A stretch of DNA of 35,675 nt. Origin: a virus. Lineage: Duplodnaviria; Heunggongvirae; Uroviricota; Caudoviricetes. The stretch is from IMG/VR virus record IMGVR_UViG_2563366934_000005; one strand, given 5' to 3'. The notes below the pieces were generated by a model that did not search any database, had not been told where the DNA came from, and saw only the letters and a program-made list of their open reading frames with translations. The position numbers were made by a program, and so were the translations under genes. Each line of letters begins with the position of its first letter. Position 1 is the first letter of the stretch. Below are positions 3,592 through 29,026 of this stretch, in pieces.

Positions 3592-6039
3592 TTAACCGTC
3601 ATGCATCATGCTGGCACGGGCGCGCGCACGTTTATCCCGCTCGTATTTTTCGAGCGCATCCTGTAACTGGCGGTCAAGCTGTGTTCCCGGCGCAGAACCA
3701 CCCGTCAGGTTAATGTGATATTCGTTTTTACTCTGGTCTACATAAGAGCGGCCAGCCGGTGCCGTAACCGGCTGATAAGCCTGATAGCCTGCATAAGAGC
3801 TGGTCGCCGGAATATAACCAACGCTGCCATACGTGGCGGCTTGAGTTCTGGCGGCGGTCTGGTCAAGTGTGTCTGACTCTTTGTTGATAACACCGAGTTT
3901 TTCCAGTACCCAGTCAATACCGCTGCGCAGTTTGTTGAACGCATTAAGCGGCAGCATCAGCGCGTCAGCCAGTGCCTGCCCGAACATGACGCCCGTGTCA
4001 CGGCAACGGTTCAGGGTGTCCTGGGTGGCTTTAACCGGGGCAATCAGGTTTTTAAACCACTGCCACGCGGCCTGTAACTTTTCGCCCAGCCAGTCAAACA
4101 CCGGTTTCAGTGGCGTGAACAGCTCCCCCACCGGCGCAAATGCCGCTTTCAGCCCTTCAACCACACCGCCAAAGAATGCGCTGACAGGCTCCCAGTATTT
4201 ACGGATAAGTAACGCTCCGGCGACAATGGCGGCCACCACGGCCACTACCGGCCAGCTAATCGCCCCGATGGCCGTCATAACGGCACTGCCAACCGTCGTG
4301 AAAATTGCCCCCATTGCGCCTGCTGCAGCAATGATGGCATTGATGCCGGTGATAACCGGCCAGGCTACGAGGCCAATGGCACCGATGACACCAGTCAGCG
4401 CCAGTGCACCACCGACAATGATGCCGATGGTTGACGCCAGTGATTTGTTTTTCTGGATCCAGCCGTCGAGTTTTAACACATACTTTGTGGCCGTCTGCGT
4501 GAGATTACGCAGTGCGCCTTCCTGCTGGTCAAACAGGTCAGTCCCCACCGCCTCATAAGCGGACTGAAACTCCTTAAAGTCACCTCCGAGGTTGTCCTGC
4601 ATGATTTTAACCAGCTCTTCCGTTTTATCGTCCGAGGCTTTCAGCATGGCGGTCAGCTTATCCAGTTTTCCGCTTGCTGCCGCTGCCAGTAAAACGTTCG
4701 CTGATTTCAGGGCTTCCTCACCAAAAATGGTTTTAAGGTATTCCCCCTTCTGAGACGTTCCCAGCTTGTTTTTATCAAAGCTGGCCTGAATCTCTTTCAG
4801 AATGGTAAACAACGGACGCATATTTCCCTTTTTGTCCGAGGTTTTAACGCCAAGCTCTTTGAGTGCTTCCCATGCTTTCCCTGTCGGAGCCTGTAATCGG
4901 GTGACAACGGCACTGCTACCCGTACCCGCCATTGACCCCCTGATGTTATTGTCATGCAGCACACCTGTCATGGCTGCTGCCTGCTCAAGACTTACACCTG
5001 CCGTCTTCGCAACTGGGCCGAGGTAAGTCAGTGCATCACTGAGTCCCTGAAAATCAGCCGCCGACTTATTCATCGTTGCCGACAACACATCACCCACATG
5101 GCTGACATCATCATTTGACAGTTGAAAAGATGCTTTAGTCCCCAGCAACAGTTGCGCGTTTTCTTCCATCGACCGCTGATTCGCCAGTGCCATATTCAGC
5201 GTGACCGGCGTTGCCGCCTGAATAGCCGCAGCATCTCCACCCGCTTTCGCAATGATAATCTGCGCACCGGCTGCATCATCCGCCGAGGCGGCGGTGTTGT
5301 CGCCGAGCTGGCGCGCCTGCTTGCGTAGTGCGGTCATTTCGGCGGAGTCTTTTGCCACTCCGAGCACGGCCTGCAATTCTGAGTTTTTCTGCGCAAACTC
5401 ATAACCGGGCATCAGCAGCTTAACTCCGGCCATCGTTCCCGCCGCCGCAATCCCCACACCGGCAGCGCCCACTGAGGCCATATTTCCGGCCAGTTCCTTT
5501 CCGGCCTGATAACGCTGTTTTACTGCGTTAAGTTTTGCCTGTTGCGCACTGACACGCGCCAGCGCGTCACGCTGACGGTTAAGTTGTGCGGTGGTTTCAC
5601 TGATACGGTTTTTCAGTCCCTGCTCATCATGTGCAAGATTGCGGGTATTAATTCCCACAGCGGCCAGTTCCCGCTGCTGGCGTTTAACGGAATCCGTCAG
5701 GCGGTTATATTTCGCCTGTAAGTCCTCCGCCGCACGCTTTGCGGATTCCAGCACTTTCGCCTGAGCACGGGTCGGACGTTCGGTGTTTTTAAACTGTGTG
5801 GCAAGGGCTTCGGCTTCCTGCCGTGCCTTTTCAAGTGCATGACCAGTCACGGCAAGCTGTGCACTGGTCTTGCGGAATCCCTCAATACGGGATGCGTGAC
5901 CGTTCAGCTCGCGCAGTGATTTTTGTGTTTCCCGGATATCCCCCGACAGCGACTTACTCGCTGTACGGATGGATTTAAACGGGCGGGATGCCTGGTCAAC
6001 AGCCCTGAGCAATACCTGTAATTTTACATTGTTACTCAT
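3592..6039 (-). CDS. T: tail tape measure protein T
   Basis: 815 aa, the P2 gpT length. Coiled-coil-rich N-terminus and Gly/Ala-rich hydrophobic middle segment typical of tape measure proteins. Confidence 0.85.
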   Translation of the reverse strand: MSNNVKLQVLLRAVDQASRPFKSIRTASKSLSGDIRETQKSLRELNGHASRIEGFRKTSAQLAVTGHALEKARQEAEALATQFKNTERPTRAQAKVLESAKRAAEDLQAKYNRLTDSVKRQQRELAAVGINTRNLAHDEQGLKNRISETTAQLNRQRDALARVSAQQAKLNAVKQRYQAGKELAGNMASVGAAGVGIAAAGTMAGVKLLMPGYEFAQKNSELQAVLGVAKDSAEMTALRKQARQLGDNTAASADDAAGAQIIIAKAGGDAAAIQAATPVTLNMALANQRSMEENAQLLLGTKASFQLSNDDVSHVGDVLSATMNKSAADFQGLSDALTYLGPVAKTAGVSLEQAAAMTGVLHDNNIRGSMAGTGSSAVVTRLQAPTGKAWEALKELGVKTSDKKGNMRPLFTILKEIQASFDKNKLGTSQKGEYLKTIFGEEALKSANVLLAAAASGKLDKLTAMLKASDDKTEELVKIMQDNLGGDFKEFQSAYEAVGTDLFDQQEGALRNLTQTATKYVLKLDGWIQKNKSLASTIGIIVGGALALTGVIGAIGLVAWPVITGINAIIAAAGAMGAIFTTVGSAVMTAIGAISWPVVAVVAAIVAGALLIRKYWEPVSAFFGGVVEGLKAAFAPVGELFTPLKPVFDWLGEKLQAAWQWFKNLIAPVKATQDTLNRCRDTGVMFGQALADALMLPLNAFNKLRSGIDWVLEKLGVINKESDTLDQTAARTQAATYGSVGYIPATSSYAGYQAYQPVTAPAGRSYVDQSKNEYHINLTGGSAPGTQLDRQLQDALEKYERDKRARARASMMHDG

Positions 6040-7046: not shown

Positions 7047-8237
7047 TTAATTGCTGTTAACCGAAGTGACCAGATTTGCCAGGTATTTATCGGTAATACG
7101 CTGGCGCAGGGTCAGGTTTTCAAGAGGAGGCACCGGTGTATAGTCGTAGTCGATATACAGTTTTCCGGCCTTGAGGGTTTCCGCATCGTTGGATTCTTCG
7201 CTGAACCAGCAGGTCGCATCCACGATATAGCCGTTTGTTTTCAGCTCACGGAATTTGGCATTGATGCCGTCAACGATGTCGCGAATCAGCGTTGCGGTGA
7301 TGGGCTTGTCCACCGCCCACATGTGCGCCTCAGCCATCGTGTCGGCCAGCACCTGCGCGGTGCGGGTGTAGTTTTCAAAGAGGAACAGCGGGTCATCAGA
7401 GCAGGTACGGTTACCCCAGAAGCGGAAACCGTCACGGCGAATCAGCGTTGTGACGCCTGACTCGTTAAGCAGGTCAGCATCGGTGCCGGACTCCTGCAAA
7501 TCCCAGAATACGGACGCGCTGATGCCGGTAACACCGTTCACCCCGACGTTGGACAGCGTTTTATGCCAGCCCTGCTCCTGGTCGATTTTAGCGCGCAGAC
7601 CCAGCGCACGGGCAGTGGCATACGCGGTGGCGGTGGTACTGGCGACCGTATCCCATGCGAGGAAATCCGGCCAGATGACCATCAGCTCACGCTGGCTGAA
7701 ATTCTGGCGGTAGGCTTTCACCTCGGAAATGGTTTTACAGCCCCATGCGCTGATATACCCGAAAGCGCGCAGCTTCTGACAGACTGATGCCAGTGCAACA
7801 GCCACCTCTTTGGTGTCCAGTCCCGGCACACCGAGAATACGCGGTTTAACGCCGGTTACCGACTCTGCCGCCAGCAGGGCTTTCAGTCCGGTGTACTGAC
7901 CATTTTCGTCGGTGGTGCCGATGATATTGGAAACGGTCTGCGCGAGTTTCGTTTCCTCGTCGTCGCCGGTGCCGTCTTCCACACGCACGACAACGGTGAC
8001 CGGTTTTGACTGGTCAGCGATGGCCTGCAACGACGCCGCCAGCGTGCCTTTTTTACCGGCCTTTGCAATTGCGCTCTGCACGTTGGTAATCAGCACCGGT
8101 TTATTGAGGGGGAAGGTTTCCGCATCCGCATCGCTGGCCGTGCAGACCATGCCGACAATGGCCGTGGATACGGTGGAAATGACGCGGGTGCCGTCGTTAA
8201 TCTCCAGCACCTGCACGCCGTGATGATAGTCACTCAT
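7047..8237 (-). CDS. FI: contractile tail sheath protein FI
   Basis: 396 aa, the P2 gpFI length. GGAG ribosome-binding site upstream of the ATG. Confidence 0.85.
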   Translation of the reverse strand: MSDYHHGVQVLEINDGTRVISTVSTAIVGMVCTASDADAETFPLNKPVLITNVQSAIAKAGKKGTLAASLQAIADQSKPVTVVVRVEDGTGDDEETKLAQTVSNIIGTTDENGQYTGLKALLAAESVTGVKPRILGVPGLDTKEVAVALASVCQKLRAFGYISAWGCKTISEVKAYRQNFSQRELMVIWPDFLAWDTVASTTATAYATARALGLRAKIDQEQGWHKTLSNVGVNGVTGISASVFWDLQESGTDADLLNESGVTTLIRRDGFRFWGNRTCSDDPLFLFENYTRTAQVLADTMAEAHMWAVDKPITATLIRDIVDGINAKFRELKTNGYIVDATCWFSEESNDAETLKAGKLYIDYDYTPVPPLENLTLRQRITDKYLANLVTSVNSN

Positions 8238-8330
8238 CCGTTTAACTCCGTGGTTAATGGGTGCAACTATTTTCTGTTGTGCAGAGCATGAGACGCTATA
8301 TGACCTGGCTGGTCAGTGGATGAAACAACA
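8238..8330 (-). promoter_or_regulatory. candidate late promoter region for the FI-FII-E-T-U-D operon
   Basis: About 90 bp between the upstream terminator hairpin and the FI start, where P2 places its Ogr-dependent late promoter. I could not identify a convincing TGT-N12-ACA element by eye. Confidence 0.3.
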
Positions 8331-8340
8331 GATAAAGAAA

Positions 8341-8361
8341 AGGCGGGCAATTCGCCCGCCT
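8341..8361 (-). terminator. intrinsic terminator closing the Z/fun cargo transcript
   Basis: GC-rich hairpin AGGCGGGC-AATTC-GCCCGCCT followed on the minus strand by TTTCTTTATCTGTTGTTT. Confidence 0.45.
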
Positions 8362-8600
8362 GTCCTGATTTGTACTCACTCATTTTCCGACTGACAATTT
8401 ACATAGCCCAAACGCTATCAATTCTGACAGTCTGCTTTGAGCGAGGAGCAGACCTTCACGCTTTTCGCTGTTGAGTGACATGAATTATTAAAGAGCATTA
8501 TAAAACTTCACTTTTTCTAATTTCAATGCTTTATTAAAGTCAGCGACATTCAGGCTTATCAATTCAATATTAATATACCATCAGCATTATATAAGAGGTA

Positions 8601-9605
8601 TTATGCTAACCATTTTGGATGCTCTTTATAAACATTATTAAACCACTCGGTCATTTCAGGTGAGTTCGTATCCTTTATCCAAGTTAACTCAAAGTCATCT
8701 CCCATAGATGCAAATATTGATTTCAATTGAGTTATGATTAAACCATAGTAAAATCCAAAAGTTTTTTCTTCATCCTCATTGACTAATGATTCAATATGAC
8801 AACTGAGAATAAATCGAACTCGTGCCGCCGTTGAGGGATGTGTCGATTGAAAATGTTCATGGGGTGATAAGCCATCAGAAAGTTTGAAGTAGCACAGTAT
8901 TAATAGCAATGAAAATGCAATTCCGCCTTCCTTGCTGCTATAAAAATCAAGCAAGTTATTAAGATAAGATACCTTCTGATCAAATGCAGACTGTACATGT
9001 TTTTTTACAATATTAAGAGCAAAACCATCTGCAACTAATTCTCTTGCGTGGCTTGATATTAGTTCTGCGCTATTGATTTTTTTATGTCCTAAAACATCAT
9101 CAAAGATAGTGTCAATAGATTGCTTTTTTGCTCGGTCGCCATGTTTATTAATGAAATGGCCTACTTCGTGACTAACTATAAACAGCATTAGACAATCAAG
9201 AATAAACATAAATAAGTGTGATTCGGACTCACTTTCCTCTCTTGTCTCATTGTTAAACCCAACAAATGGATTAGTAACGAGATGCAAGTCATAAAAGTTT
9301 AAATTAGTACTTTTCCCTGTTATCATCCCTGACCGAAAAATCAAGTCAGATAACTTACATAGTCTATCAAATGTACCATAAGACATAAATATTAATTTTT
9401 CATCATAAATAATGCCGCATTGAAAATGTGAGTTGGTTGTAATGCAAAAATCCAGATCTAATTTTCGAACAGAGTCCATGTATTTACTAAAAAACGGCAG
9501 TACGAGACCATTATCTCTATCATTTATAAAATCATAGATAAGCCCCAATTGATTCTTTGAAAGAATTTCATTGATTTCATTAAGTTTTATTTCAAATCTA
9601 TCCAT
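8601..9605 (-). CDS. cargo protein with ImmA/IrrE-like (M78-type) HExxH zinc-metallopeptidase core; function unknown
   Basis: 334-aa ORF with AAGAGG ribosome-binding site 8 nt upstream. HEVGH at residues 146-150 (nt about 9156-9170) and ELVADGFAL at 189-197, fitting the HExxH ... ExxA(N/D)xFA pattern of COG2856 peptidases. Very AT-rich relative to the phage backbone. Confidence 0.55.
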   Translation of the reverse strand: MDRFEIKLNEINEILSKNQLGLIYDFINDRDNGLVLPFFSKYMDSVRKLDLDFCITTNSHFQCGIIYDEKLIFMSYGTFDRLCKLSDLIFRSGMITGKSTNLNFYDLHLVTNPFVGFNNETREESESESHLFMFILDCLMLFIVSHEVGHFINKHGDRAKKQSIDTIFDDVLGHKKINSAELISSHARELVADGFALNIVKKHVQSAFDQKVSYLNNLLDFYSSKEGGIAFSLLLILCYFKLSDGLSPHEHFQSTHPSTAARVRFILSCHIESLVNEDEEKTFGFYYGLIITQLKSIFASMGDDFELTWIKDTNSPEMTEWFNNVYKEHPKWLA

Positions 9606-9921
9606 AATTAGAACCTCTTAATTAAAATTTTAAATAATCCGCTTAAGTAGCTATGGAGATGTAATTCTAATACTCAATCCACTCATTCAATGGAAAGATT
9701 AGCATTACTTTAACCGCACTTTTGGACTTGACTTACTTCCCTTAAAGCTTCTGGGCACTATGTTAGTAATGTCCGCTCTTCGCACGCAGCGGACATTGCT
9801 AATAGCGGTCTATGTGAAACACGGGGAGTAGGTTAGTTTTAGCGTTAAACACAATAAGAGCACGATGAAGTATCAAAAAGGAAGCATTGCATAGATAATT
9901 TAGGCAAAAACAGAGCTTAAA

Positions 9922-10773
9922 TTACATATCATTCGCTATCAATTCGGTTGAGAGAACCCTTGGAATCAAGCTACTTTTTGAACCATACTTTATATACAGA
10001 AAGTCCATCATCTTTTCAACATCACTTTCATGCTCTACAATGACATATTTAATATCCTTATGTGAAAAGGGTAACCTGTCATCATCATAATATTCGTTAT
10101 ATTTTCTCTTGCCATCTTGAGTTGATATATTTTTCGAAGCAGCGATCACTGGTTTTCCAATTGATTTTTCTATATCTGGAACAAATCGCCACTCCCTCTC
10201 ATCTGCAAAAATATAGTTAGGTTTCTCCTGACCATTGCGTCGTTTCAAAGTTGCCTGGTAATTTTTCATATATCGCAAAGGATCTACAATTTTCTTGTAA
10301 CTAAGAATCGCCGAGTCATATTTCCGCTTTGCATTAGTTAATTGAGATGTTGTTCCTGAAGATTTTATTTCGTCCAAATGCTTTAATAACTTATTAACTT
10401 CTGCTTTTAAACGCCTAATCTCTAGATTATAATTATCAAAAACAGAAGAGTGCTTGGACATGTAAATTACTGGATTAAGTCCATTTTCGTTTGCCCAATC
10501 TTTTGATAATCCTATGCCATAATGGCCATAACTTTCAGTATGCTGGGTAAGCTGTGTTAGCCTGATATCACAAAATGAAACCATCGGTATACCGAAATTT
10601 CTATTCGTGCTCTGGCCTTGTATAAACTCTCTAGCGAAAGAAATTCGAAAATAACTTGAGTCAAGTATCTCAAATAAGGTATCTAACTTTTCAGTAAAAT
10701 GAAACAAGGTCGTTGGGTATAAGCTACGCGACATAATGATCATCCATAATATGATGTATAAACTAAGTATCAT
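9922..10773 (-). CDS. hypothetical cargo protein (283-aa ORF; start may be an internal Met)
   Basis: Long AT-rich ORF at the Z/fun position. Conspicuous LFHFT...L..IL N-terminal motif and a basic coiled-coil-like middle. No clear ribosome-binding site at the first ATG; alternative starts at Met11 and Met14. Confidence 0.5.
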   Translation of the reverse strand: MILSLYIILWMIIMSRSLYPTTLFHFTEKLDTLFEILDSSYFRISFAREFIQGQSTNRNFGIPMVSFCDIRLTQLTQHTESYGHYGIGLSKDWANENGLNPVIYMSKHSSVFDNYNLEIRRLKAEVNKLLKHLDEIKSSGTTSQLTNAKRKYDSAILSYKKIVDPLRYMKNYQATLKRRNGQEKPNYIFADEREWRFVPDIEKSIGKPVIAASKNISTQDGKRKYNEYYDDDRLPFSHKDIKYVIVEHESDVEKMMDFLYIKYGSKSSLIPRVLSTELIANDM

Positions 10774-10952
10774 AAATCAAGGTTATCAGTACTTACCATA
10801 CATCAGCAAGCGGAATTAGCGATAGCGGCCTGCTCCTCATTAATCAACACTAAGAGCTGTTAGCTACTTCCGCTCCTGGCACAGAGCGGACTGTCAGATT
10901 AGGCTTTACTCTGTGCCATAGATATGTAAGCTCACACCAGAGTTCATATAAC

Positions 10953-11483: not shown

Positions 11484-13732
11484 TTATACCTGCGCCACGT
11501 TATACCATGTCCCGTTAATGTATTTCTGAACCGGTCTGTAATATACACCACCAATGTTATCGGCAGAGTTTGAGCCGGTATCCTGAACAATAATGCCGGA
11601 ATATACACACCCGGACGGTGCCTGATGTGTCCATGTCATGCCATTGTTCGCAGGTTTGTATGTGGCAGCACCACCAAGCCGGATATCCCGGACATAGCGG
11701 GAATCAAAGTTACCGTAATCCGAGGGATTAACACGCCCCGTAATATTTATGGTTTTATTACTTTGAATGCTACCGGAGACAAAGCGCATAACATGGACGT
11801 TATTAGCATAAACATCCAGATTACCGTCGCCATTTTGTTTAAAGCCCGTGTCATTATCACCCAAAACAATCGAGTTACCGCCAAGAGCACTGGATGTACC
11901 GATGCCCAGTGCACCATTCAATTGACCTCCAGATAATGATAACGCCCCAACATCAGCAGCAGTCGGTTTAATGTGCGAACTGTAAATTACATATACAGTT
12001 CCATCTGTCAGGCCTGTTGGTTTATTCGCTGTATAAGTTGGTGATGTATGAATCGTTACGCTGGCGTTACTGGTATAATCCCACTGAATATTAACACCTG
12101 TGGCGTAATTACCTATTTCAACATAAACATCATAGGTATCACCGGATGTATTCACCCATGCAAAATTAGTAAATCCAACCGAGGTCCGTCGCCATAACGC
12201 ACCAGTAAGACCTTTTGGATTTCCATTTCCCGCACGAAGAACAAGTTCAGATATACCAGCCTGCATAGGGGAGTTAACATTATATCCGGCACCACCAATC
12301 AGACTTATGTAAACCACGGAACTGGCCTGTGACATGGTTACAGTTGCCAGCCTGAACCATCCTGTACCACCACTAAAAGACATGGTTGTTGAATTTGTTG
12401 CTCCAATATTGCGCAGGAATAATCTTTTATCAGGAATATCCGCGCCATTTTGATCTTTCTGAAGACGTTTTTCAGCATTGTCATAGGCAGACTTCACCGC
12501 TTTTGGTGTTGCGGCCAGCGTTTCCGAATCACTGTTGGTGGCGCTACTGAGCTGGACAAGACCTTTTCGCGCTGTGGTGGCGTCCTGTGCGGTATATTTC
12601 CCGTTAGCAAGGTCATACGCTGTCTTAACCGCCTTTGGCGTTGCAGCCAGCGTTTCAGAATCGCTGTTTGTGGCGCTACTGAGCTGGACAAGACCTTTTC
12701 GCGCTGTGGTGGCGTCCTGTGCGGTATATTTCCCGTTAGCAAGGTCATACGCTGTCTTAACCGCCTTTGGCGTTGCAGCCAGCGTTTCAGAATCGCTGTT
12801 TGTGGCGCTACTGAGCTGGACAAGACCTTTTCGCGCTGTGGTGGCATCCTGTGCGGTATATTTCCCGTTAGCGAGGTCATATGCTGCCTTTACCGCCTTT
12901 GGCGTTGCCGCAAGCGTTTCAGAATCACTGTTGGTGGCGCTACTGAGCTGGACAAGACCTTTTCGCGCTGTGGTGGCATCCTGTGCAGTGTATTTCCCGT
13001 TAGCAAGGTCATATGCTGCTTTTACCGCTTTTGGTGTTGCGGCGAGCGTTTCAGACGTGCTGTTGGTGGCACTACTGAGCTGGACAAGACCTTTTCGCGC
13101 TGTGGTAGCGTCCTGTGCGGTATATTTCCCGTTAGCCAGGTCATATCTTTCGGCGTTGCAGCCAGTGTTTCAGACGTGCTGTTGGTCGCACTGCTTAACT
13201 GAGTAAAACCTTTTGCGGTCAGCGAGGCGTCCGGGTGACGTCGTGACTGTTCATGTTCTGCAATTTTGTCATCAACGTAATCCTGCGTCGCCATCACCGT
13301 TGTGGTGTCAATGGTCAGCTCCACTGAGGTCACACTGCTGACGATGATGACCATACGGCAGGTCTGCGAACGCCCTGAGCCTTCGGCAAGAGCTGGCTTA
13401 TAACTTTCGGCCATGTTCGCCACGGCAATTAACGTTCCAGCATCATCGTACAGGCCAAGCTCACGCATCCAGAAACCGCCCACCTCCGGCGGAATAACCA
13501 GCTCTGCGATAATATAATTACTGTTTCGTTTGTCCTGGCTGATTTTGTTCAGCGCATGTCGCCAGACTTCGTGGATAAGCCCGGTCTGTCCGGCATCCGG
13601 GACAGGCAATTTACCACCGCCATCCCCGACGGCCATCGTGGTAATGTTGACCTTCCGCCCTCCCGGCGCGGTTGCCGCTGCCAGCTTTGCTGCACCGGCA
13701 GTGGTGATAACGGTTCTGAATTTTGTGCTCAT
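11484..13732 (-). pseudogene. H: tail fibre protein H, disrupted by a frameshift within its internal repeats
   Basis: The conserved H N-terminus (ORF 13022-13732) runs through the first repeat in frame (..SSATNSTSETLAATPK), then continues out of frame. The in-frame repeats and receptor-binding C-terminus (ORF 11484-12497, open upstream to about 13145) are in another frame. About 13 nt encoding AVKxA is missing at about 13146-13147 relative to the other repeat units. Confidence 0.6.
12497..13215 (-). repeat. tandem 132-bp coding repeats (about 5 units of a 44-aa tail-fibre motif)
   Basis: Near-identical units every 132 bp, starting at about 12541, 12673, 12805, 12937 and 13069. Each encodes AVKAAYDLANGKYTAQDATTARKGLVQLSSATNSDSETLAATPK. 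Confidence 0.85.
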
Positions 13733-15526: not shown

Positions 15527-16158
15527 AAAGGACTCCCGGTTGTGCCGCCGCTGTCGCCGGGGTGTTTATGGGTATGCAGTACCTTACCGTTTGATGAGAG
15601 TTCACCGCCGGTGTGTTCAATGTTGCCGCGCATCGTCCCGCCCTTCTGCACTTCCAGCGTGCCGGTAATCAGCCTGTTGGTGCAGACCACCTCCGGGGTG
15701 TCCAGGGTGACGCGCGTTGATGCTTTCACCATGACCACCGGCACCGTGGCAGTAACAGAATCAGAAGCCGTCACGCTGGCCGTTTTAATTCCGCTTACCG
15801 TGAGTGCACTGGTTTCGGGTTCATATTCAATCACCGCCCCGTCAGGGAAACGGATATGCAGGGCATCCGCCGACACAGACGGCGAGGGGTTATCGCCGGA
15901 ATAAATCCCCGGCAGAACGAACGCCGTGTCGAGTTCACCGCCCACGGCCAGAATCAGCACCTGTTCTCCCACGGAAGGTGCCCACCATGTGCGCGAACGT
16001 CCTGCGCGATGGGTCAGCCACTGAAGCCAGTCGGTGCACATGCCGCCGGTCTGCACGCGGCAGCGACCGGCGTTAAGGTCGGTTTCGACGATAATGCCGG
16101 TGCGAATCATGTTGCGCAGTGCGCGCGCGAGTTCCTGAATATTTGCGAGAGTGTTCAT
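15523..16158 (-). CDS. V: baseplate spike protein V
   Basis: 211 aa from the ATG at 16158 (MNTLANIQELARALRNM...), the P2 gpV length. The track ORF starts 6 codons upstream at a TTG. Confidence 0.8.
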   Translation of the reverse strand: MNTLANIQELARALRNMIRTGIIVETDLNAGRCRVQTGGMCTDWLQWLTHRAGRSRTWWAPSVGEQVLILAVGGELDTAFVLPGIYSGDNPSPSVSADALHIRFPDGAVIEYEPETSALTVSGIKTASVTASDSVTATVPVVMVKASTRVTLDTPEVVCTNRLITGTLEVQKGGTMRGNIEHTGGELSSNGKVLHTHKHPGDSGGTTGSPL

Positions 16159-16241
16159 GCATGTGAGATTGCACAATATATAAAAGTTATGCTATCTGGA
16201 TTCATTTGTAGAACTACCAGACAACATTCAAGGAGAGCGTA

Positions 16242-17027
16242 ATGGTCAGCTATAATGTGACTAATGTGTGGGGGCTAATCGTTTTTTTCCTTTGTAGCTT
16301 TGCAGTATTAGCATTTTTTAGCTTTGGTAAAAGTAACCTTATGAGGCTTATTGCACATTATTTCAATTTTGGATATTCAGACAAAAAATTAAAAAGACTT
16401 GACCGCGAGTGGCGCGACATTCAACTATTTAAAATAATTAACGGAATCAATGTATCAGGCATTGAAAATGTGAGAATGATACAGCAGGGACTGATTGATG
16501 GAAAACTAAAAACATCGTATTTTTTCCTTACTCGCATCTGGGGTGACATAACAAAACCACCACACATAATTAAAACAATAATTGTAATTCTGGCCAGTAT
16601 TTTTTACATTCTCCTCGCATGTTACATACACAACGAACAATCCGTTATAGTAAGGGATGCCATAGGCATACCATATAAAAACATGATGTACTATGTTTAT
16701 AGTGACAAAGTTCTTTTATCCTTCAAAAATAAAGCAGTTGAATTTAATAAAACTTATAGCCTTGCCGATTGCAAGAGACTGCAAAACGTATTTATAAAAG
16801 ACACACTTCCTGAGATCGCCTGCAATAAGCTCTTACAGCTAAACGAGGAGGACTCCGAATGGTTAAGCCAGGAGATTAAAGATAATAACAGTCACAAAAA
16901 AGCATTATTAATACTATCCCTCGTCTATTTCACTTCAGGTCTGGTTATATTCCTGTCATATACAAAATTCTTTTACGCCAATAAGAAGGTTTTAGAATAC
17001 AAAGCATCAAATAAAAATCACTCATAA
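16242..17027 (+). CDS. AT-rich membrane protein at the P2 orf30 position (3 predicted transmembrane segments), function unknown
   Basis: 261-aa ORF with AGGAG ribosome-binding site. Encoded opposite to the flanking V and S late genes. Hydrophobic segments at about residues 10-28, 112-131 and 222-241. Confidence 0.6.
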   Translation: MVSYNVTNVWGLIVFFLCSFAVLAFFSFGKSNLMRLIAHYFNFGYSDKKLKRLDREWRDIQLFKIINGINVSGIENVRMIQQGLIDGKLKTSYFFLTRIWGDITKPPHIIKTIIVILASIFYILLACYIHNEQSVIVRDAIGIPYKNMMYYVYSDKVLLSFKNKAVEFNKTYSLADCKRLQNVFIKDTLPEIACNKLLQLNEEDSEWLSQEIKDNNSHKKALLILSLVYFTSGLVIFLSYTKFFYANKKVLEYKASNKNHS

Positions 17028-26467: not shown

Positions 26468-26782
26468 CGCCCGCTTCATGGGGCGGTTTTAATGCAGTTG
26501 CATGATGAAACTGAAATCACATCAGAACTGACCGAAACTGACAAAAAGAATAGTATCTGACACATGCAAAAACACGCACTTAATATACGCCTATCTATAG
26601 CTCCTACAGGATTGTCAAAAAACGACCAACTCGTCATAGCGTAAACACATTTGGCTCAACGAACACTTACGTTATATGCCTCTTGAACATATCAAAGTCT
26701 TAAGGTAGATCTTTACCACTAAGTGGCTATATTAAGCTGCTTTTTTACATACAATAAAAGCTTTATCGTATGAGGCATAAAA

Positions 26783-28999
26783 ATGGAACTTAGATTAAAA
26801 AATGTTACCAGTTATAAGAAAGACGCCTTCACAATACTGAATCTTGAAAAAAGAGTAAACATACTATACGGCCAAAATGGTTGTGGCAAATCTACCATTT
26901 CAAATTATTTCTACGACTCTACACACACAGATTATAACGAGTGTGAATGTACCCTTCTTGACAATTACAAACCTCTTGTTTACAACACTAAATTTATTGA
27001 AGATAATTTCTACAATGCACAGGAACAAAAAGGTGTTTTTACATTAAGTAAAGAAAATGCAGATATTGAAAAACAATTAATTGAAAAAGAAGCAATTAAA
27101 CAGCAACTCACAGAGCAATATAGACAAAAAAAAGGAGTGTTATTGAAATTAGAAGCAGAAATGGAAAAAAAAGAAAATGAATACATCGAATCGATCTGGA
27201 AAAAAACAGAACCAATCAGAAACTCTGTACTAAAAACCTTAATGAAAGGTAAAGTTGGCTATAAAAGACCTTTTTTTGAGATGATAAAATCATCCTCACC
27301 AATCACCTTTATTAATTTAAATGATATAGCAAAAGAATACTCTATACTATTAGAAAATAGAAACAATGAAACCGCATTAATAACTCCTTTACATCCATAT
27401 ATCCCATCAATTGATGATGTAAATACATTAGCAACACCTATAATAGATACAAGCAATAGCTATTTATCAGAAACCATTAATAAACTTCATAATCTTGACT
27501 GGGTAAAAAAAGGTAAAGAACATTATTTAGACGGTTCTACATGTCCGTTTTGTCAGGAAAAAACTATTAGTCACGAATTTTTAAATGCCCTTAAATCAAT
27601 ATTTGACGAAAGTTATTCAAAGAAAGTAAAACAGCTCTCAGATATAAAGTCAGTTTATGAGAAAAATACTATATATCATTTTAACGAAATACAAAACAAT
27701 ATATCATCATGTGCACTAATCAATGAGAAAGATAAAGAGAACATTATTTCCAATATTAAAATATTGCAAAACATTGCAGAAAAAAATTTAATAAACATTA
27801 TTGATAAGATCAACAATCCATCAACATGCGTTACATTAGAAATTGATAAAGAACTAGAAAATCATGTTCAGGAAAGCATAGGCGCTGTTAACAAGAAAAT
27901 AAGAGACATAAATGATAAGGTTAAAAAACTCAAAGAGTATGAGAATAAAATCGGAAAACAAGTTTGGGGGGCTCTCCATGCTTTTTGCAGCGATGATTTA
28001 GAGAATTTATCCAAACACAAAGAAAAATTCTTTGATATCAAAAAGAAAGTTCATGATGAATTAAATAATATTGAGCAACAAGGAAAAGAAAATAATCTCA
28101 CAATAAAAGCATTGCGAGATAAAATATCTAACATTGATTCTACGATAGACTCAATAAACACCCATTTAAAAAATCTAGGGATCTCTGGTTTTTGTATTGA
28201 AAAACATGCAGAAAGAAAAGATATGTACATTATATCTCGACCAGGGCATACAAAAAACCAAAATGTTTATAGATCTCTTAGCGAAGGTGAAAAAACACTA
28301 ATAACGTTTCTTTATTTTTTAGAGTGCTGTAAAGGTAAAACCGATAAAAATGATACCGATAGCAGGGATATTTTTATTGTTATTGACGATCCAATATCTA
28401 GTCTATCGCAAAACTATGTCTACGACATCGCATCAATTATTCATCACCACATTATAAAAAATGAATTAACAAAGAAGGTATTAATCCTTACTCACAATCT
28501 TTATTTCTTTCATGAACTTATTAAGCTATCTCCTAAAAGCAGAGAAGACAAACTATTTAAGAAAAACTATTATCTAGGTAGAGTAACGAAAAATGATTTT
28601 AGTATAATTACTGAAATACAAAAAAACAGCATACAGAATGAATATCAATCTTTGTGGCAAATATTAAAAGATGCAAAAGATGGCAAAGCAAACAAAATCA
28701 TAATACCGAATATTATGAGAAACATACTAGAATATTATTTTGCATTTGTTCATAGAACAGATGCTCTACAAGATGAATTAACAAAGTTGGCACGCGACGA
28801 TAGCAACAGTGATTTCAAAGCATTCTACAGATACATTAACAGAGGTTCTCACTCTGATGCGGTAAATATTACTGATATGGGCGACATAGACCCAGATAAA
28901 TACCTAAAACAATTGAGAACAATATTTTCAGCTACTGGTGACGAAATGCATTATTTAAAAATGATGGACGAACTAGAAGAGGAGAACGTTACCGCTTAG
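26783..28999 (+). CDS. RloC/PrrC-like ABC-type ATPase with CxxC zinc-hook-like insert and C-terminal HEPN-like nuclease motif (putative anticodon nuclease / defence protein)
   Basis: 738-aa AT-rich ORF with GAGG ribosome-binding site. Walker A GQNGCGKST (aa 30-38), signature-like LSEGEK (499-504), Walker B IFIVIDDP (531-538) and H-loop LILTHN. A roughly 400-aa Lys/Glu-rich insert carries CPFC (254-257). C-terminal RNILE (646-650) and RYINRGSH (683-690) fit R-x3-E and R-x6-H. Confidence 0.55.
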   Translation: MELRLKNVTSYKKDAFTILNLEKRVNILYGQNGCGKSTISNYFYDSTHTDYNECECTLLDNYKPLVYNTKFIEDNFYNAQEQKGVFTLSKENADIEKQLIEKEAIKQQLTEQYRQKKGVLLKLEAEMEKKENEYIESIWKKTEPIRNSVLKTLMKGKVGYKRPFFEMIKSSSPITFINLNDIAKEYSILLENRNNETALITPLHPYIPSIDDVNTLATPIIDTSNSYLSETINKLHNLDWVKKGKEHYLDGSTCPFCQEKTISHEFLNALKSIFDESYSKKVKQLSDIKSVYEKNTIYHFNEIQNNISSCALINEKDKENIISNIKILQNIAEKNLINIIDKINNPSTCVTLEIDKELENHVQESIGAVNKKIRDINDKVKKLKEYENKIGKQVWGALHAFCSDDLENLSKHKEKFFDIKKKVHDELNNIEQQGKENNLTIKALRDKISNIDSTIDSINTHLKNLGISGFCIEKHAERKDMYIISRPGHTKNQNVYRSLSEGEKTLITFLYFLECCKGKTDKNDTDSRDIFIVIDDPISSLSQNYVYDIASIIHHHIIKNELTKKVLILTHNLYFFHELIKLSPKSREDKLFKKNYYLGRVTKNDFSIITEIQKNSIQNEYQSLWQILKDAKDGKANKIIIPNIMRNILEYYFAFVHRTDALQDELTKLARDDSNSDFKAFYRYINRGSHSDAVNITDMGDIDPDKYLKQLRTIFSATGDEMHYLKMMDELEEENVTA

Positions 29000-29026
29000 G
29001 CCGCATATTATCGTTTTGGGTAAGAA

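Follow-up and report, generated by a model that had tools for sequence, protein, structure and literature searches.

A metallopeptidase gene and a lone AbiGi gene form two separately mobile cassettes in the Z/fun hotspot of a P2-like Escherichia coli prophage

What do the two AT-rich genes between the tail-fibre assembly gene G and the tail sheath gene FI of a P2-like Escherichia coli prophage encode, and do they act together or alone? The prophage is IMG/VR virus record IMGVR_UViG_2563366934_000005, analysed as a single stretch of 35,675 nucleotides (the window), and the site is the Z/fun hotspot. P2 hotspots are reservoirs of anti-phage systems (PMC9122126; Rousset et al. 2022), and because they are a proven source, uncharacterised cargo within them is a good place to seek new ones. 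One of the two genes encodes an M48/Lit-like zinc metallopeptidase (the protease below), and the other encodes a member of the AbiGi family. The genes are separately mobile cassettes, stacked at the hotspot and joined at a third copy of the inverted repeat that marks its edges. Most likely, they function as two independent single-gene phage-exclusion determinants.

Place and composition of the island

A preliminary description of this DNA, made from its letters, had placed a 2.7-kb AT-rich island of foreign cargo at the Z/fun hotspot, and its position between G and FI upholds this. The interval from the start of FI (8237) to the stop of G (10953) measures 2715 bp. The GC content of the island is about 33% (0.32-0.34 over 8501-10500), compared with about 0.51-0.59 in the FI-side backbone and 0.43-0.45 in the G/H tail-fibre genes on the opposite flank. 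It contains only two open reading frames (ORFs) of at least 60 aa, both on the minus strand, and these are the two frames described earlier (8601-9605, 334 aa, and 9922-10773, 283 aa). The genes and signals of the interval are as follows.

9922-10734, minus strand: AbiGi-family gene, 270 aa from its probable start (the program-delimited ORF is 9922-10773, 283 aa)
9614-9619, minus strand: Shine-Dalgarno sequence AAGAGG of the protease gene, read directly, 8 nt ahead of the ATG at 9605
8601-9605, minus strand: ORF of the M48/Lit-like zinc metallopeptidase, 334 aa (phrog_20713; 'M48 family metalloprotease' in RefSeq)
8341-8361, minus strand: intrinsic terminator ahead of the FI operon, in conserved backbone outside the island
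8237-7047, minus strand: tail sheath gene FI

The AAGAGG 8 nt before the protease ATG is the gene-specific ribosome-binding site that had been noted. The terminator (8361-8341) consists of a 9-bp stem with 7 G-C pairs followed by TTTTCTTT, with a folding energy of -20.1 kcal/mol (z = -4.5). It exists where the preliminary description put it, but it does not close the island, as was claimed there: it lies inside the stretch 8200-8456, which is 95-97% identical in P2-like phages with other cargo (three loci), and it is therefore part of the P2 backbone.

A promoter scan of the region returned 11 sites, compared with 11.6 expected from shuffles; given this lack of excess, no promoters are assigned. 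The best σ70-like match in the region, TTGAAA-18-TATAAT (11 of 12 positions; 8497-8526, minus strand), lies downstream of the protease gene and faces through the FI-side hairpin (hairpin C, below) to the backbone terminator about 140-150 nt away. A short transcript could arise from it, or the match may be due to chance.

Hairpins and cassette borders

The two genes are separated by a spacer of 316 bp (9606-9921), in which a hairpin at about 9768-9797 had been reported. Folding confirms it: the core ATGTCCGCT-N10-AGCGGACAT (9797-9768) lies within a longer, 15-bp stem that spans 9763-9802 and has an energy of -22.4 kcal/mol (z = -4.2), which 0 of 200 shuffles equalled. This hairpin is the middle one of three, which delimit two cassettes.

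10856-10898: hairpin A, inverted repeat at the G-side boundary of the hotspot, core TCCGCTC-N8-GAGCGGA, perfect 7-bp stem, related to B and C
9763-9806: hairpin B, the spacer hairpin and cassette junction, 15-bp stem with 93% complementarity
8423-8453: hairpin C, inverted repeat at the FI-side boundary, GTCTGCT-N10-AGCAGAC, perfect 7-bp stem
9788-10890, minus strand: AbiGi cassette, comprising the gene, its flanks and two half-hairpins
8430-9795, minus strand: protease cassette

In a repeat search, hairpin C pairs with hairpin A at 83% complementarity, and A, B and C are the sole hairpins of the 35.7-kb window with a perfect 7-bp stem and the shared core. Hairpins A and C sit in backbone common to P2-like phages whose cargo is HNH, Fun-like or other; hairpin C is within the conserved stretch 8200-8456.

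The borders of the cassettes emerge from DNA comparison. The AbiGi cassette (9788-10890) is 92% identical to two loci of Klebsiella michiganensis and 88% identical to one of Pantoea agglomerans, while positions 8472-9795 are 82% identical to Enterobacter mori (loci L002-L005) and positions 8430-9749 are 80% identical to two loci of Pectobacteriaceae. Within hairpin A, the AbiGi cassette ceases to match Klebsiella and Pantoea (at 10884-10890), and backbone homology to other P2-like phages restarts close by, at 10865-10873. Hairpin B contains the breakpoints of both cassette homologies (9788-9795). In Klebsiella and Pantoea, a related hairpin lies on the downstream side of AbiGi, and in Enterobacter one precedes the protease gene; in non-phage genomes, each cassette retains half-hairpins. 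The alternation of hairpins and cassettes, with a hairpin at either end and one between the two cassettes, recurs in a second E. coli P2-like prophage that has an AbiGi cassette. Hairpin B is the cassette junction and, like A and C, a copy of the inverted repeat found at the hotspot edges, here the third; the length of the spacer is explained in this way with no need for a regulatory RNA. Neither a known RNA (Rfam, E <= 1) nor a repeat array (Tandem Repeats Finder) was detected in the island, which makes a ToxI-like RNA antitoxin in the spacer unlikely.

Like known Z/fun cargo, the island lies between G and FI, is AT-rich and has inverted-repeat hairpins at its edges; it differs from other cargo of this hotspot in having two stacked cassettes with a further repeat copy in between. 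PMC8987985 credits Nilsson et al. 2004 with both the inverted repeats around fun and the role suggested for them in exchange between phage and bacteria. The order hairpin A, AbiGi, hairpin B, protease, hairpin C suggests two single-gene cassettes stacked in the hotspot, which appear to be swapped by recombination within the hairpin repeats. Such a layout makes a clean natural example of cassette stacking and exchange among phages, satellites and chromosomal islands.

The hairpins were also considered as integron attC sites. The elements are far shorter than a typical attC, and their flanks, GTTAGTA and GCTAAT, bear only a loose likeness to the attC core-site consensus; this reading was not adopted.

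In the G/FI hotspot of the second E. coli prophage with an AbiGi cassette (GCA_012534335.1; locus L027, 3171-5759), there are a 126-aa gene, a 242-aa gene whose product has a TIR-like C-terminus, and a gene for a 252-aa AbiGi homologue (43% identical), all on the strand that does not carry the tail genes. The hairpin family is represented there at 4798-4819 and 5809-5832, and by an imperfect member on the FI side.

The two families in other genomes

Homologues of the protease (48-85% identity) are found with no AbiGi nearby in five settings, and homologues of AbiGi (40-91% identity) are found with neither the protease nor AbiGii in another five.

Protease: Enterobacter mori chromosomal locus
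Protease: Pantoea locus beside a P2-type integrase and CI
Protease: Vibrio campbellii array of short same-strand genes resembling integron cassettes
Protease: Pectobacteriaceae integrase island with AAA_21+DUF4276 and RelE/MqsA
Protease: Providencia P4-like element
AbiGi: Klebsiella island with GmrSD and TIR genes
AbiGi: Pantoea
AbiGi: end of a Serratia prophage
AbiGi: beside a Salmonella relaxase
AbiGi: G/FI hotspot of the other E. coli P2-like prophage (43%), next to a TIR-like cassette

Both families thus occur on mobile elements and beside known defence genes in defence islands, and the two genes are separately mobile cassettes. The preliminary description had left open whether they are two independent morons or a sensor/effector pair; the contexts and the breakpoint in hairpin B favour the former and disfavour the latter. 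The island as such is present in 1 of 5426 complete genomes.

In Pantoea agglomerans (loci L006, 5421-5960, and L007, 5508-5960), the protease homologue (62-64% identical) has a gene for a protein of 150-179 aa ahead of it on the same strand, at a distance of 40 bp. This protein has a TIR-like segment, matching a PADLOC TIR effector at 2.8e-11 and Pfam CAP12-PCTIR_TIR at 1.3e-4, which is below the cut-off. The TIR-like gene and the protease gene may form a local two-gene arrangement, seen nowhere else.

The 334-aa metallopeptidase

The 334-aa protein belongs to a small uncharacterised family of gluzincins, whose closest known relatives are the M48 peptidases and, more distantly, the Lit peptidase. 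Its Pfam match is to Peptidase_M48 (PF01435), with 23.5 bits exceeding the gathering score of 20.3 by a small margin, and the match covers only profile positions 134-182 of 186, the C-terminal part. When 54 family members were scanned singly, 8 matched M48. Both HExxH and (S/T)HP..R can be aligned to 3c37, the structure of a soluble M48 member, and the predicted fold matches M13 and M48 peptidases. A sequence-profile search of the PDB gave a marginal M48 match along with spurious matches to LRR and GFP, and a search of viral folds (BFVD) gave a single uncharacterised Myoviridae protein (2.5e-6), which is uninformative.

The motifs are H146-E-V-G-H150, E189-L-V-A-D193 and (S/T)HP..R. Among close relatives, H146, E147, H150, N153, H155, G156, R158, S185, H186, E189-LVAD193, H251, F252, T255, H256, P257 and R262 are invariant. 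Across the 54 members, which extend down to 16% identity, H146, E147, H150, D193, P257 and R262 remain invariant and H155 and E189 nearly so. The HEVGH and ELVAD motifs pointed out earlier are thus present and kept in homologues. Where the source is named, all members come from Gammaproteobacteria; a word-indexed search found 28 clusters, and an exhaustive profile search found 129 representatives at 50% identity. A profile scan of one genome per species with the protease alignment returned no confirmed relative, which indicates that the family is rare.

The only strongly hydrophobic stretch of the protein is the active-site helix and the structure model is globular, so the protease is treated as cytoplasmic. 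Unlike HtpX, Ste24 and BepA, all of the M48 family, it has no membrane spans or TPR domain. It also differs from M48 peptidases in its distinct N-terminal domain, which is specific to its own family and about 120 residues long, and in being carried on mobile elements rather than as a housekeeping gene.

Lit, encoded by the E. coli prophage e14, responds to the T4 Gol peptide and cuts EF-Tu. It resembles the protease in being prophage-borne, single-gene, soluble and about 300-330 aa long, and the motifs follow the same order: HEISH, EEREAD and NTHPAAYER in Lit (K-12), and HEVGH, RELVAD and STHPSTAAR in the protease. The N-terminal 120 residues of the protease are unrelated to Lit, and the score with the NCBIfam Lit model NF007238 (22 bits, E 7.8e-5, compared with a cut-off of 274) indicates that it is not a Lit orthologue. 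The PADLOC Lit match is 0.011. The Pfam Peptidase_U49 profile PF10463.15 gave no match at E <= 1; the precomputed PF10463.16 matches the identical protein (E <= 1e-5) and is graded weak for several homologues.

The AbiGi-family protein

The preliminary description had suspected the 283-aa ORF of being Abi-associated, and profile searches bear this out. It matches Pfam AbiGi (PF10899) at 7e-31, with 108 bits compared with a cut-off of 22.4, and PADLOC AbiGi at 2e-41, with 140 bits over profile positions 19-259 of 260 (phrog_13416). With the NCBIfam AbiGI equivalog NF042957, it reaches 58.1 bits compared with a cut-off of 300, a score that places it outside orthology with the lactococcal protein. 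The homologues all start with MSRSLYPTT; the true start is therefore most likely at 10734, giving 270 aa instead of 283, which is also how RefSeq annotates the protein.

Multiple residues are invariant in 27 relatives of 39-89% identity: H12-F13, S53-F-C55, Y69, G73, G75, Y155, K157, N158 and F176-A-x-E179-x-E181-W-R. In the structure model (predicted local distance difference test score 92), an alpha/beta core is joined by a two-helix coiled-coil insertion (97-153) and a small C-terminal alpha/beta domain, and the core keeps the invariant H...S-x-C...E-x-E set. The predicted fold resembles the ADP-ribosyltransferase DarT, to which sequence identity is 12-14%; a sequence-profile search of the PDB with the protein gave no match. 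DarT of the DarTG system is a toxin that ADP-ribosylates thymidine in single-stranded DNA. The AbiGi locus lacks a DarG-type macrodomain antitoxin, and the coiled-coil insertion and C-terminal domain are additions relative to DarT.

The lactococcal AbiG system consists of AbiGi and AbiGii. Here, the neighbouring gene has no AbiGii match in PADLOC at E <= 1, and the close relatives of this AbiGi are likewise lone genes. Lactococcal AbiGi and AbiGii are non-toxic in E. coli, and this includes AbiGi alone (PMC3985639); the database label 'antitoxin' is therefore an analogy only.

More distant AbiGi relatives (37-38% identity) are found on 92 plasmids, many of them replicons of about 110 kb with phage-like genes, which in Klebsiella and E. 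coli include cobT, grxA, phoH and DNA ligase. On the E. coli plasmid NZ_CP061757.1 (locus L040, 2956-5015), a 403-aa gene begins 27 bp after AbiGi. As a candidate AbiGii, this partner has no PADLOC support; it is also unrelated to the protease and gives a faint HSDR_N (nuclease-like) signal.

Proposed function and alternatives

Probably, the two genes are independent cassettes that are both anti-phage. In the mechanism proposed here, the protease would act much as Lit does, as a soluble enzyme that is expressed from the prophage and kept latent until it is bound by a protein of an infecting phage, perhaps at the family-specific N-terminal domain. Once activated, it would cut an essential host protein (for example, one of translation) or a phage protein, and infection would be aborted. 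For AbiGi, we propose a DarT-like ADP-ribosyltransferase that inhibits itself until a phage component, such as a structural protein, switches it on; the coiled-coil insertion of about 60 residues and the C-terminal alpha/beta domain may be its regulatory or sensing part. The activated enzyme would then halt phage gene expression or kill the cell. A more specific version, held tentatively, is that the protease is the founder of a new single-gene Lit-like abortive-infection family, having its own N-terminal sensor and a trigger and target unlike those of Lit, and that lone AbiGi proteins are DarT-like ADP-ribosylating effectors. If this is true, the lone-AbiGi clade can do without AbiGii, and databases are wrong to label AbiGi an antitoxin. 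The protease family, with about 130 representatives at 50% identity, would then span P2 prophages, P4-like satellites, integron-like arrays and integrase islands.

Several results weigh against assigning both genes to defence as independent units. Both proteins stay below the curated thresholds of validated defence families (22 of 274 bits for Lit, 58 of 300 for AbiGI), and no PADLOC model covers the protease family. The similarity of the protease to Lit is weak, with an hhalign E of 8e-4 and a probability of 24%. Neither island protein is present among 50,697 deposited phage genomes. For AbiGi, a published survey found no significant structural match to the lactococcal protein (PMC13064643), and to this is added the lack of toxicity in E. 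coli mentioned above. Finally, the order G-AbiGi-protease-FI is kept in 24 of the 24 E. coli contigs read, as might be expected if the genes were functionally coupled.

The alternative that survives best, itself unlikely, is that the genes are passengers or lysogenic-conversion cargo unrelated to defence (for example, a protease of the housekeeping type beside an Abi remnant in decay) or that they are silent. The absence of excess promoter-like sites fits this idea, and AT-rich DNA of this kind may be silenced by H-NS, as is argued for immunity loci in a preprint (bioRxiv 10.64898/2026.09.05.749240). However, both ORFs are intact, and the catalytic residues do not vary in homologues of 17-89% identity. 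An exact copy of the protease is recorded in 232 blocks of the sequence collection, and both families are met again on plasmids, prophages and satellites, in an integron-like array and on integrase islands next to known defence genes.

It is distinctly less probable that the two genes form one two-component system by analogy with AbiGi/AbiGii, with AbiGi as sensor or antitoxin and the protease as effector, or with the roles exchanged. They are adjacent on the same strand, in an order shared by the 24 E. coli contigs and by one further locus (L039), and lactococcal AbiG requires two genes (PMC13064643). Members of both families can, moreover, have partners, as seen in the 403-aa gene on the phage-plasmid-like replicons and the small TIR-like gene of Pantoea. 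However, the E. coli copies of the two-cassette island are about 99% identical, so that their co-occurrence reflects linkage and not repeated independent association. In the compared contexts, at 40-92% identity, the families are never neighbours (0 of 5 for the protease and 0 of 6 for AbiGi). The pair is thus inherited together within E. coli and found apart in other genera. Furthermore, the 316-bp spacer with its strong hairpin offers no operon-like coupling, and the DNA homology of each cassette ends at hairpin B.

Finally, the preliminary description had called the 334-aa protein ImmA/IrrE-like, and a regulatory protease of this type, cleaving a repressor and thereby derepressing a mobile element or toxin, is very improbable: although the HExxH...E pattern is compatible with it and weak matches to M78 (best 5e-4) and to PADLOC capP, an M78-type protease, occur in 3 and 4 of the 54 members, the protein itself matches Peptidase_M48 but not Peptidase_M78 in Pfam at E <= 1, its predicted structure superposes best on M48-type peptidases with no ImmA/IrrE structure in the top 60 fold matches, and no Xre/HTH repressor or substrate gene is found in the island or as a conserved neighbour in the other protease contexts.

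Relation to known hotspot cargo

The hotspot and its role in defence are already known, as is the AbiGi family, and both genes already have names in RefSeq. Current understanding is not overturned, and the island is typical hotspot cargo. Its proteins are unlike the Fun-like, HNH or other cargo sampled from the hotspot (best blastp E = 2), and the text and supplements of Rousset et al. 2022 (PMC9122126) contain no AbiG, M48 or WP_0015447xx entries. A candidate named 'Peptidase + TM' was cloned in that work as pFR104; it comes from the other hotspot (hotspot 2), in a P2-like prophage carried by E. coli TA280 (PMC9122126, supplementary file 3). A 2026 survey reports a single Lit homologue in one P2-like prophage (PMC13586616). 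In the literature consulted and in PADLOC, we found no description of the protease family as a defence candidate, of a stand-alone lone-AbiGi clade or of the stacked pair. The island therefore offers two well-defined candidates, each with clear catalytic residues. The protease could extend the long-isolated Lit paradigm, and the lone AbiGi could give the AbiG family a biochemical activity.

Other features of the prophage

An AT-rich block (26500-29000) also occupies the second P2 hotspot, the old/tin position flanked by portal and replication genes. Its gene (26783-28999, plus strand) encodes an intact AAA_13 ATPase of 738 aa, which matches the PADLOC candidate family PDC-S06 at 1e-254; the C-terminal part of the ATPase also matches PrrC, an anticodon nuclease, at 1e-12. 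NZ_AP041814.1 carries a near-identical prophage, in which this gene has a frameshift according to its annotation.

A third AT-rich insertion, an islet of 34% GC at about 16000-17000, separates the baseplate gene V from the tail-completion genes. It carries a gene (16242-17027, plus strand) opposite in strand to its neighbours; the encoded protein, of 261 aa, has a hydrophobic stretch at each end and no match in Pfam or PADLOC.

At about 12450-13200 of the window, a peptide of about 43 residues is repeated four to five times in plus-strand ORF translations, which points to tandem DNA repeats of about 129 bp inside the minus-strand tail-fibre gene.

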